From contig CANNFC010000003.1 in assembly GCA_947503755.1 (NCBI GenBank), positions 1-40,798 of the forward strand: a stretch of DNA of 40,798 nt, written 5' to 3'. Below are positions 854-2,959 of this stretch, piece after piece. A program made the translations under genes and the position numbers. How positions within the stretch are numbered: the first letter of the stretch is position 1; each line of letters opens with the position of its first letter. The notes beneath the pieces are model-generated. The model was not told the DNA's origin. It did not search any database and saw only the letters and a list, made by a program, of their open reading frames with translations. This DNA comes from Rickettsiales bacterium. Lineage in GTDB: Bacteria > Pseudomonadota > Alphaproteobacteria > Rickettsiales > UBA1997.

Positions 854-2959
854 ATGGAAAAATCATTTATAAATAGCAATTTAATAAAATTGTTAGAAAA
901 ATTTGGGTTTGAAAATAGTCGGTCAAGCTTAGAAGATTCTCAATCAGAAGATGCTGTAAAATTTATTATTCCAGATGATTCTTGTCTTGGTCGAATTTTA
1001 AACAACCAAAAAGTTAAAGATTTTTTAGAAAAAGAAGATGTTAAATGGCGAGAATTATTAAATCAAAAGGAGTCGGAAACCCCAGCTTTTGCGGATCTTG
1101 CTAGACTTTCTAAAGTAAATGTTTATAGCGGAGTGCAAGATTGGACACGATATTTTAAGAATTATACTTCAGGAGACTTAAAATATTTAAATCATAATGG
1201 ATCAGTTCCAACTGAATATGTTACTATTGCTTCGGCATCAAAATATAGTAAAAATCTTAATTTTCGTTTTGGTGAATCTGGATTATTTTTTAAACCAACC
1301 TGTGCTCTTCTATTTGGTAAGCAAGATTTTGGCAGTTGTGGTGTTGGAGGTGCTTTAGATCCTAGAATGGCATTTCAAAATTATAACGAAACAGAATTTA
1401 AAAGAGAAAATTTAGCTTTCGATTTAAATCGCATTGCAAAGAAATTGCAGTACGATTTTTATTTACACAGCACAGATCTTGATTTAGAAGATATTAGAAA
1501 TCAATATGCAAACGAAAAAAATCAGATAATCAACCGTTTTAAAAGCTTTTTTTCGCCACATCAACGAGAAAGAAAACTTAATAGAGACATTGCTAAATCT
1601 AAAGGATTCGCATCTAAAGGATTCGCTATGTTATATGGTAAAGAAACTGAATATAGCGAAATGCATCTTCCAGCAACTATATTGCTTGCTGAAGGTGTTT
1701 TTAGTTTAGATTGTTTAACAGAAAATTCATTAAAGCAATATGAAGTGATTTGTAATTTAAAAGAATTTTTAAGTTCAAATGATGAAAATATAACAGAAAG
1801 CCAATTAAATATCTTTAAAAGGCTTCTTGCCAAGGATTTCCTTGAATCAAATGGGCTTGAATTATTAAAAAAAAAATGCTTAGAAATAAGAAGTGATTTT
1901 CTTGAAAATACTGCGAAATATTTTAATGGTATTACGGCAAGTCATCAAACAAGAGTAGAAGAGTTGATAGAAGTAGAAGAGTTGATAGAAGACGATAAAA
2001 TGGAAGAAGCAATAGCTTTGGCTTTACAAAGTGATTATTTTAAAAAATTTATTACAACAGCAGGAATTCAACAACATTTAAAAAACCCCCTTAATATAAA
2101 GATTTTTAATAGCAAAACTAATGAAGTTGAAAATATTTTGCAAGAAGAAGTATTGTTATTAATAGAAAAAATAGATTTAGTTAAGAAGATAATTGAAGAT
2201 GACAAAGTAAAAGCAACAGATAGAGAATCTTTGAAAAAGATTTTTAATAAGGTTGATTTAAGAAAAATTATCGAATACTTTACCAAAGATGGTGAAACAT
2301 CTTTTCCTGCAGAAGCAATTGATAACGATAAACTAAACTTAGAAAAATTATTGAAAATAGACAATTTACAAGAGTTTTTTAAGCCATTTTTTGATGATTG
2401 TGATCAAAAATTAGATAATATTAAACAAAACGAGATGAAGTTTTTTTTAGCCCCGTTTTTTTTAGTTGGAATTGCTTGCCTTGTTCTTTCTACTATTCCT
2501 ACCCCTGCTGCTCTACTCTTTCTTATAGTGGGTGTTGAGTTTTGTGTAGGATCTGTACTTATTACTTTGGTAGATAAAGTAGTTTGTTCTTTAATTGCAC
2601 AAGAACAGTTAAAAGAGTTGAAAGAAGGTAGGCCAGAAATCAATAAAAAACAAGCTTTTGCAAAAATTGTTGGAAGATGTTGTAAATCCTTCACTTCTTA
2701 TTTCATAAAACAACAATCACAACCAGCGACACCTTTCATTGGAACTGAACAACAATTACCACCAGCGACACCTTTAAGACCGGAGGCAACCATTGTAAAT
2801 GAACAACAATCACCACCAGTGACATCTTTCATTGTAAATGAACAACAATTACCACCAGCGACACCTTTAGAGCCGGCAACCATTGGAGCACCAGCGACAT
2901 CTTTGTGGCTGGCAACCATTGGAGCAGTAGCAAAAGAAAACACGGGGATGTCTATATAA
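854..2959 (+). CDS. Hypothetical effector-like protein with a large soluble N-terminal region, a C-terminal bilobed hydrophobic hairpin and a Pro-rich repeat tail
   Basis: 701-aa ORF with an ATG start. The hydrophobic stretch FFLAPFFLVGIACLVLSTIPTPAALLFLIVGVEFCVGSVLITLV (nt ~2441-2575) is followed by 3-4 EQQ(L/S)PPAT(P/S) units. Internal in-frame tandem repeats are SKGFA x2 and VEELIE x2. No recognisable enzyme motifs. Confidence 0.8.
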   Translation: MEKSFINSNLIKLLEKFGFENSRSSLEDSQSEDAVKFIIPDDSCLGRILNNQKVKDFLEKEDVKWRELLNQKESETPAFADLARLSKVNVYSGVQDWTRYFKNYTSGDLKYLNHNGSVPTEYVTIASASKYSKNLNFRFGESGLFFKPTCALLFGKQDFGSCGVGGALDPRMAFQNYNETEFKRENLAFDLNRIAKKLQYDFYLHSTDLDLEDIRNQYANEKNQIINRFKSFFSPHQRERKLNRDIAKSKGFASKGFAMLYGKETEYSEMHLPATILLAEGVFSLDCLTENSLKQYEVICNLKEFLSSNDENITESQLNIFKRLLAKDFLESNGLELLKKKCLEIRSDFLENTAKYFNGITASHQTRVEELIEVEELIEDDKMEEAIALALQSDYFKKFITTAGIQQHLKNPLNIKIFNSKTNEVENILQEEVLLLIEKIDLVKKIIEDDKVKATDRESLKKIFNKVDLRKIIEYFTKDGETSFPAEAIDNDKLNLEKLLKIDNLQEFFKPFFDDCDQKLDNIKQNEMKFFLAPFFLVGIACLVLSTIPTPAALLFLIVGVEFCVGSVLITLVDKVVCSLIAQEQLKELKEGRPEINKKQAFAKIVGRCCKSFTSYFIKQQSQPATPFIGTEQQLPPATPLRPEATIVNEQQSPPVTSFIVNEQQLPPATPLEPATIGAPATSLWLATIGAVAKENTGMSI

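Follow-up and report, generated by a model that had tools for sequence, protein, structure and literature searches.

A polymorphic tandem duplication of a fast-evolving membrane-hairpin gene between rseP and rpoD in a freshwater alphaproteobacterium

The 40,798-nt stretch of contig CANNFC010000003.1 analysed here (hereafter the window) opens with two tandem copies of a gene coding for a protein with one membrane-type hydrophobic hairpin, namely the end of an upstream paralogue (copy 1) and a complete paralogue of 701 amino acids (copy 2; open reading frame (ORF) 854..2959, plus strand, ATG start), both open and intact within the window and followed by rpoD. The family is a new, unannotated and lineage-restricted gene of an uncultured low-GC freshwater alphaproteobacterium, and the locus is a clear case of conflict-type evolution. 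Duplication combined with amino-acid change at or above the neutral rate suggests an arms race. Our tentative explanation is an orphan arms-race ("conflict") protein that is resident in the bacterium's own inner membrane and has been diversified by an intracellular adversary, and we consider this slightly more likely than translocation of the protein into a eukaryotic host, as had been proposed in the first-pass annotation of the locus.

The hairpin protein and its neighbours have diverged to very different degrees. Between loci L011 and L001 RseP is 85% identical vs 36% for the hairpin protein, and between L004 and L001 the figures are 98% and ~69% (P0002/P0004); amino-acid change in the hairpin protein is estimated to be 10-30 times faster than in its neighbours. 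The gene-wide ratio of nonsynonymous to synonymous substitution rates (dN/dS) ranges from 0.8 to 2.0. Nei-Gojobori estimates for three genome pairs gave 0.84, 0.92 and 1.58 for the gene, compared with 0.03-0.17 in most comparisons of dxr, rseP, rpoD, cmk and purH, the exceptions being cmk (1.39) and purH (0.33) in the closest pair (L004/L005), each from a handful of differences. The dS of the gene (0.10-0.20) stands beside 0.04-0.17 for most neighbours, with ~0.01 for cmk and purH in the closest pair, and its dN (0.12-0.18) beside 0.001-0.03. Copy 2 differs from the allele of the closest strain, L004, by 65.7 nonsynonymous and 8.3 synonymous differences (25.5 and 0.5 within residues 1-520), and cmk, purH and suhB of the window each differ from L004 by 1 nonsynonymous and 0 synonymous change. 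The nonsynonymous excess has binomial P values of 0.004-0.03, and L004 vs L005 gives P = 0.007. The proportion of nonsynonymous differences (pN) peaks in the hairpin (0.34) and in the Pro-rich tail (0.33).

A high dN/dS could also come from relaxed constraint together with recombination, in which case the product would be an ordinary inner-membrane protein, for example a scaffold near RseP. This explanation, which we regard as improbable, would fit the conserved position next to rseP, a pooled pN/pS (pS, synonymous differences) of 0.7-1.5 in every region of the gene with no strongly constrained block, and the comparison of the two copies in the window, which differ at 32 codons (27 nonsynonymous, 5 synonymous) such that neutrality is not rejected (binomial P = 0.35). 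However, a neutral 2.1-kb ORF at dS 0.1-0.2 should carry frameshifts or stops, whereas the ORF is intact in all full-length members and all length differences are multiples of three (3, 6, 15, 18, 21, 39 and 93 nt). Members that are just 32-39% identical have ~90 invariant positions in common, concentrated in residues 78-290 and 346-420; two comparisons lie beyond neutrality at the binomial P values above; and the retention of at least two copies of a 2.1-kb gene, though the genome of a relative is ~1.1 Mb, argues for selection. The gene is being retained even as its sequence is driven to diverge.

Two specific sources of variation were ruled out. A diversity-generating retroelement does not fit substitutions without adenine bias, and phase variation at the A10 run, where slippage had been raised as a possibility, does not fit the lack of length variants in four metagenome runs. 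The run itself and the two in-frame micro-duplications (SKGFA x2 and VEELIE x2) are present as first described; the 18-nt VEELIE duplication is missing in P0001/P0002 and in one contig of run X4.

The tandem arrangement of the paralogues, which had been recognized at the outset, stands, but what is repeated is not the gene alone: the unit is a head-to-tail segment of 2.33-2.37 kb comprising the 3' end of rseP (84 nt), the gene, the 117-nt intergenic region and the first ~17 codons of rpoD. The duplication is recent and was made by recombination at the 7-nt microhomology TTGGCAA, and it puts a second rpoD upstream region ahead of copy 2. No differences occur in the first 41 codons of the copy comparison or in the intergenic region, and 19 of the 32 differing codons fall within codons 42-84, which bears out the earlier observation that the paralogues have diverged most in the hairpin. 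The head-to-tail unit, the 7-nt novel joint, the polymorphic copy number and the capture of a neighbouring promoter region are shared with microhomology-mediated tandem amplification in bacteria, but here the copies have already diverged, the hairpin most of all, and the duplication is not transient. Compared with the real rpoD, the rpoD stub shows a one-A difference in an A-run.

Unitig depths in four independent lake metagenome runs (X1-X4) show how the duplication is distributed. The junction unitig (726-785) had a depth of 118 in X1, 11.6 in X2 and 10.1 in X3 and was absent from X4; the path from rseP into the gene had depths of 95, 19, 19 and 16 in X1, X2, X3 and X4, respectively. In X1 the gene was at ~199 vs ~101 for rpoD. 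These depths correspond to ~2.2 copies per genome in X1 and to a single copy in X4, and in X2 and X3 to a population in which some genomes have one copy and others two. Because the junction is seen in three lake metagenomes and not in the fourth, copy number is polymorphic among lakes, at ~0 to 1.2 junctions per genome. The same data bear on whether the paralogues are a chimeric mis-join of strain variants or a decaying pseudogene. The region splits into short unitigs in all runs, several alleles coexist, and the closest assembled relative shows one copy (possibly a collapsed repeat), as such an artefact would produce; yet the junction unitig, running from the rpoD stub to the rseP remnant, occurs in three independent runs at a depth proportional to the genome, gene depth in X1 is about twice that of rpoD and both copies are open and intact, so that we consider this explanation very improbable. 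At least three hairpin alleles are present in the X1 sample: the copy 2 type (depth 98), the copy 1 type (depth 46) and a third, seen as a loose end reading a P0002-type hairpin (EIKFLTAP). Length variants at the locus include an in-frame 21-nt insertion behind position 947 in runs X2 and X3, the loss of one 18-nt VEELIE unit (1954-1971) in run X4 and a 93-nt difference from L004 in the Pro-rich tail (at 2746).

The protein can be divided into five parts: a soluble module of ~525 amino acids, a 44-residue hairpin, a Lys-rich amphipathic helix, a Pro-rich linker and an acidic/hydrophobic C-terminus. A hydropathy scan agrees with the first-pass annotation that each of the two copies has one 44-residue bilobed hydrophobic block, and the Pro-rich units behind it are real as well; the statement that the proteins end with the block does not hold, as 128 residues trail it. 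The hairpin sits at 75% of the protein length. Residues 530-573 are the sole strongly hydrophobic stretch of copy 2, with a Kyte-Doolittle 19-residue mean above 1.6 throughout the block and maxima of 2.44 and 2.51 in the two lobes; outside the block the mean reaches 1.34 at most, and the same scale revealed no N-terminal signal-like segment. The position-independent Hessa-scale sum is -0.9 and -0.4 for the two lobes and -2.2 to +2.3 in relatives. Lysines lie on both flanks, with KQNEMK ahead of the block and DK...KELKEGRPEINKK behind it. Since there is no signal peptide, lysines stand on both sides and the loop has 5 residues, the hairpin should insert N-in/C-in, with both soluble parts on the cytoplasmic face and the turn outside.

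Our tentatively favoured explanation builds on this predicted topology. The hairpin would insert into the bacterium's own inner membrane and stay there, displaying a cytoplasmic module, possibly an enzyme, at the inner face of that membrane. An intracellular adversary, most plausibly phages, would impose diversifying selection, with additional gene copies and novel alleles of the hairpin or tail at an advantage; the protein may act in exclusion or abortive infection, or may be a target that phages exploit. A resident location is preferred because the lobes are strongly hydrophobic with positive flanks, because a hairpin of this kind inserts by default into the cell's own inner membrane, and because the linkage to rseP is tight in two lineages and co-transcription is probable. 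It is also preferred because genes for many biosynthetic steps, and none dedicated to effector secretion, lie in the window, and because the organism looks metabolically autonomous and planktonic (more than 20 lake-water metagenomes, up to ~100x). That phage pressure exists is indicated by an Hhe/PDC-S37-like anti-phage gene in the same window.

In the layout of the locus, 12 nt separate rseP from the gene and 117 nt separate the gene from rpoD. By consensus matching only, no terminator-like sites were found between the genes of the region, and the best sigma-70-like match is TTGAAA-17-TAAAAT at 641-669, with a second copy at 3013-3041. The gene is probably co-transcribed with rseP.

Translocation of the protein as a transmembrane effector is the alternative that we find doubtful but still credible. 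The protein would pass through an inner-membrane intermediate, be extracted, exported by a C-terminal signal and re-inserted into a membrane of a eukaryotic host or prey, and both soluble parts would then face the host cytosol. The C-in geometry with a 5-residue loop fits that of the transmembrane effectors of the Legionella type IVB secretion system (T4bSS), which have strongly hydrophobic transmembrane (TM) segments, a C-in orientation, a short periplasmic loop and an inner-membrane intermediate on a two-step route (PMC11602083). It also fits the bilobed domain of Inc proteins, defined as 40-60 residues with two helices of 15-32 residues and a loop of 3-22 (PMC3048545), and Kyte-Doolittle and Hessa-scale scans place the hairpin (17 + 5 + 22 residues) within that definition. 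Other points in favour of translocation are the C-terminal end (acidic, then hydrophobic-S-hydrophobic), conserved behind a hypervariable Pro-rich linker, a dN/dS around or above 1 in a gene present in tandem copies, a modular family that includes a variant with DUF4116 repeats, and a secreted ankyrin-repeat gene adjoining the distant member P0016. In addition, the nearest named RecA relatives include metagenome-assembled genomes (MAGs) labelled Rickettsiales, an order in which even basal free-living-like lineages have the rvh type IV secretion system (T4SS) (PMC11077975).

The "Inc-like" label of the first-pass annotation holds for the geometry of the hairpin, and membership among the Inc proteins fails on phylum. 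The protein shares with Inc proteins the bilobed domain, large soluble parts predicted on one face, little sequence conservation and rapid evolution (PMC3048545), but Incs are specific to Chlamydiae and have an N-terminal type III signal, whereas the present hairpin lies three-quarters of the way along the protein, bears no sequence similarity to any Inc and belongs to an alphaproteobacterium. Membership was ruled out, as the host is alphaproteobacterial (RecA 81-85%; proteobacterial gene content) and not chlamydial. No type III secretion genes were found in the window or related loci. A bilobed domain alone is no predictor of translocation even in Chlamydia (PMC3048545). Legionella Dot/Icm effectors such as SidF resemble the protein in their hydrophobic TM segments, predicted C-in topology, short loop and cytoplasmic C-terminal region (PMC11602083). 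They also share Glu residues near the C-terminus and a hydrophobic residue at position -3. However, no T4bSS, IcmSW or coupling-protein genes are known for the lineage studied here. T4bSSs are not typical of Alphaproteobacteria, and no T4SS, coupling-protein or chaperone genes were found in the 40-kb window or the ~20-kb related loci.

Several further points tell against translocation. Secretion-system genes were seen in none of the loci examined, and the C-terminus is acidic, unlike VirB/D4-type secretion signals, which are basic. Hairpin-less relatives do not have the C-terminal motif, which is accordingly not a family-wide export signal. The broad biosynthetic capacity in the window, the abundance of the lineage in open-water metagenomes and the probable co-transcription with rseP likewise speak against an effector. 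The host-effector interpretation is partly supported as an analogy, through hairpin geometry and fast evolution, and unsupported as Inc membership; the family expansion that had been envisaged with it reduces to the polymorphic tandem duplication.

The organism itself is a small-genome alphaproteobacterium with substantial biosynthesis. The window has a guanine-plus-cytosine (GC) content of ~32% and includes rpoD, cmk, purH, suhB, engB, rimK, ccoN, panE, ftsQ, ddl, coaBC, argB, bioD, a PilC/GspF-type gene, def, purN, purQ, purC, hemF, cstA, ubiB, recA and miaB, encoding steps of purine, biotin, CoA, haem and arginine biosynthesis. The nearest named RecA sequences are from MAGs labelled Pelagibacterales (82%), Rickettsiales (81-82%) and Proteobacteria (85%), and one 82% RecA relative lies on a 1.09-Mb contig. 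The sequence occurs in 20 of the 21 freshwater or lake metagenome runs listed, which come from eight studies, with depths up to ~100x. The biosynthetic steps and the recovery from open lake water at high depth argue against obligate intracellular life. Dedicated effector-secretion genes were not seen in the window or the related loci, the PilC/GspF-type gene being the sole related one.

The family is small. A word-indexed search of 5.8 billion proteins returned 9 relatives and an exhaustive profile search of 1.84 billion cluster representatives returned 15 representatives, several of them fragments. Two scans of GTDB species representative genomes and a scan of viral contigs found no relative, and a metagenome scan yielded 4 loci, every one from already known lineages. 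In assemblies of close relatives (60-89% identity) the gene is single-copy, in the order rbfA-dxr-rseP-GENE-rpoD-cmk-purH. P0016 (36% identical; loci L008 and L011) lies directly behind rseP, so that the rseP linkage holds in two lineages, and it has retained the amphipathic helix, an end reading ..EEDFISV and the hairpin, in which VPPIAP forms the turn; hairpin position and turn type (PP/PxP) are conserved even at this distance. A gene for a secreted ankyrin-repeat protein of ~365 amino acids with an N-terminal signal-like segment lies convergent with P0016 and is followed by ligA (L011 3494-4591, minus strand; L012 912-1997, minus strand). The acidic-then-hydrophobic C-terminus occurs in all hairpin-bearing members and is missing in the hairpin-less ones. 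Three members have no hairpin: P0009 (L003 1151-3877), in which ~400 residues of DUF4116 repeats precede the core, P0019, a shorter relative of P0009, and P0017, in which the ~70-residue module that lies ahead of the hairpin is present three times. The DUF4116 repeats of P0009 match phrog_31839 (E 4e-67), and this type of repeat therefore occurs in phage proteins too. Apart from DUF4116/phrog_31839 in P0009, scans of the protein and its distant members against Pfam, NCBIfam, PADLOC and PHROG gave no match, and sequence and profile searches of the PDB gave chance matches only (E ~0.9); the expectation that no housekeeping homologue would turn up was confirmed by the empty Pfam, NCBIfam and PDB searches.

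The soluble module has its most conserved core in residues 111-290, where R138 (N[FY]R[FY]G), D158-F159, Y177, S206-x-D208, R215 and E266-Y-x-E269-x-H271 are invariant among members 32-39% identical; position 264 is E or Q, giving [EQ]xE with E266. When family alignments were compared by eye with the R-S-E mono-ADP-ribosyltransferases (C3, iota, ExoS and cholera-toxin group), the core showed aromatic-R138-aromatic-G, S206-[TIV]-D208 and [E/Q]264-x-E266 in the same order, and the E/Q alternation at 264 is typical of the ARTT motif. It differs in that the middle motif is S-T-D and not S-T-S, with Pro replacing Ser in one fragment, and in that the motif spacings of 68 and 58 residues are longer than usual. 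No Pfam ADP-ribosyltransferase family matched at E <= 10 in 14 members and no PDB entry matched, and we treat the possible R-S-E likeness as a lead only. A zincin motif was absent in a motif search of family members. One elaboration of the effector hypothesis would combine these elements: Inc-like hairpin effectors would have arisen independently outside Chlamydiae and Legionellales, in an alphaproteobacterial lineage that is abundant in fresh water and would interact with eukaryotic plankton, a cryptic-enzyme core (possibly a divergent R-S-E ADP-ribosyltransferase) would be delivered to the host or prey membrane, and the polymorphism of alleles and copy number would stem from host diversity. 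We judge this unlikely.

In architecture alone, the protein is also reminiscent of the fusion dynamin-like proteins atlastin, mitofusin and bacterial BDLP, in which a large N-terminal module in the cytosol is followed by a helical region, a membrane hairpin of two closely spaced helices and, at the C-terminus, an amphipathic helix. A fusion dynamin-like GTPase was nevertheless ruled out, as no P-loop ([AG]xxxxGK[ST]) occurs in seven members and there is no dynamin/GBP match in Pfam.

An exported membrane-inserting toxin would keep the hairpin buried in a soluble bundle, in the manner of colicins or Bcl-2, until it inserts into a target membrane, with release for example via a type I secretion system (T1SS) recognizing the acidic/hydrophobic C-terminus. 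Protease/lipase-type T1SS substrates end in a similar negative-then-hydrophobic motif, and the protein has no signal peptide, is acidic (predicted pI 5.4), shows amphipathic helices on both sides of the hairpin in a low-confidence model and is under diversifying selection. These features are outweighed by the lack of a Colicin or RTX match in Pfam, the lack of an immunity-like neighbour (rseP and rpoD flank the gene), positive charges on both sides of the hairpin as in a resident hairpin, and the 128-residue trailing region, making export as a toxin a quite remote prospect. A pore-forming colicin-like toxin was rejected on the same Pfam result and the lack of an adjacent immunity gene.

The resident inner-membrane conflict protein, which we tentatively prefer, has a number of points that weigh against it. 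None of the PADLOC defence models matched P0016, P0009 or the window protein. Within its clade the gene is syntenic and core-like and lies outside any variable island. The conserved C-terminal end, which comes after a disordered Pro-rich linker, resembles an export signal more than part of a resident protein, and the hairpin-less DUF4116 relatives (P0009) demonstrate that the core can function away from the membrane as well. As to the selection signal, pS is raised in the hairpin (0.24 vs ~0.09 elsewhere) and substitutions are clustered in the gene, which means that part of the signal is recombination between old alleles, a process that inflates pairwise dN/dS tests. AlphaFold2 modelling, which had been suggested for the soluble part, gave unusable folds both for the full protein (12 sequences; mean predicted local distance difference test (pLDDT) 44.7) and for residues 1-310 (14 sequences including distant members; pLDDT 41.2), and the metatranscriptome signal for the gene is too thin to indicate expression.

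Table 1. Features of the duplicated segment and its flank; positions are those of the window.
Feature	Position	Strand	Remarks
Copy 1 (upstream paralogue), 3' part	1..587	+	last 194 codons + stop; 5' end outside the window
Hydrophobic hairpin of copy 1	111..242	+	FFLAPLFLIGIACLVLS-AAVPP-FALVFLAVGVIWSVGSVAFTLV; hydropathy scan, copy comparison
Duplicated intergenic region	588..704	+	100% identical to 2960-3076; holds TTGAAA-17-TAAAAT (641-669)
rpoD 5' stub, 21 codons	705..770	+	first 17 codons as rpoD, then out of frame into rseP remnant, stop
Duplication junction TTGGCAA	756..762	+	7-nt microhomology common to rpoD (~nt 3129-3135) and rseP 3' end
rseP 3' remnant, last 28 codons	758..841	+	GNKLGVSFLFFLMLMATYNDIASFFKI*; identical to real rseP end in single-copy relatives
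Most conserved core of soluble module, residues 111-290	1183..1723	+	alignment of 32-39%-identical members
15-nt x2 in-frame micro-duplication (SKGFA x2)	1597..1626	+	100% identical units; recurrent indel hot spot in family
A10 run (KKK)	1867..1876	+	interrupted in closest allele
18-nt x2.1 in-frame micro-duplication (VEELIE x2)	1954..1991	+	100% identical units
Hydrophobic hairpin of copy 2, residues 530-573	2441..2572	+	FFLAPFFLVGIACLVLS-TIPTP-AALLFLIVGVEFCVGSVLITLV; 17 + 5-residue Pro turn + 22
Lys-rich amphipathic segment, residues 574-620	2573..2713	+	LIxxEQLKELKEGRPEINKKQAFAKIVGKCYxSFTSYFIKQ; conserved
Expandable Pro-rich units (EQQxPPATP...)	2714..2926	+	tail repeats, periods 39 and 36 nt
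Conserved C-terminus	2927..2959	+	acidic residue(s), then hydrophobic-Ser-hydrophobic-COOH; ..KENTGMSI; relatives ..EEAVISI, ..EEDFISV
Intergenic region 5' of real rpoD	2960..3076	+	promoter-like site 3013-3041
rpoD, 709 aa	3077..5206	+	right-hand anchor of duplication

The Pro-rich units listed in Table 1 vary in number: copy 2 has 4 and copy 1 has 3, the closest alleles have 2-3, and other relatives have 1. At the right-hand anchor, RpoD has a long Lys-rich N-terminal extension encoded by A-runs (window 3077-3300) adjoining the duplication breakpoint, and the gene has an 18-nt tandem repeat at 3115-3156. In the closest assembled strain, L004 (9037-11166), rpoD is called as two ORFs (121 and 557 amino acids), which points to either a frameshift or a misassembly within the A-rich, Lys-rich 5' portion of the gene.

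Elsewhere in the window, 11.5 kb away and between panE and ftsQ, a helicase-nuclease of 1245 amino acids (DUF4011/AAA_11/MTES_1575; 14496-18233, minus strand) matches the PADLOC models PDC-S37 (E 3e-220) and Hhe (E 1e-110) and provided the positive control of the defence scan. It is probably an acquired anti-phage island interrupting the ddl-ftsQ cluster, and it is located in the lowest-GC part of the window (24-28%). An orphan protein of 418 amino acids (29112-30368, minus strand) carries EYSDYEKNR(M/I)K three times in its N-terminal part and VVPEQQKKQPTQAAPSKSI twice in its C-terminal part, the latter repeats with an 'EQQ...P' flavour like the tail of the hairpin protein; its one library match is a weak PADLOC hit (E 3.5e-4). 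Two orphans flanking miaB (39122-40690, plus strand, 522 amino acids; 36904-37725, plus strand, 273 amino acids) had no library match. The former starts MVKKLYITGAGASKD, which may resemble a SIR2-type nucleotide-binding start.

Gene-wide diversifying selection together with variable copy number is rare in the small streamlined genomes of lake bacterioplankton, and genes of this kind mark where lake bacteria fight phages, grazers or hosts. The locus is tractable, as it combines an orphan family, a membrane anchor with alleles coexisting in one lake and a junction that is directly countable in metagenomes. Should the protein be resident in the inner membrane, it would be a candidate for a new function at the membrane, either directed against phages or serving as their target. 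If it is exported, it would extend transmembrane effectors of the Inc/Legionella type to a new bacterial class and would suggest that a common freshwater lineage has a host association not recognised so far.

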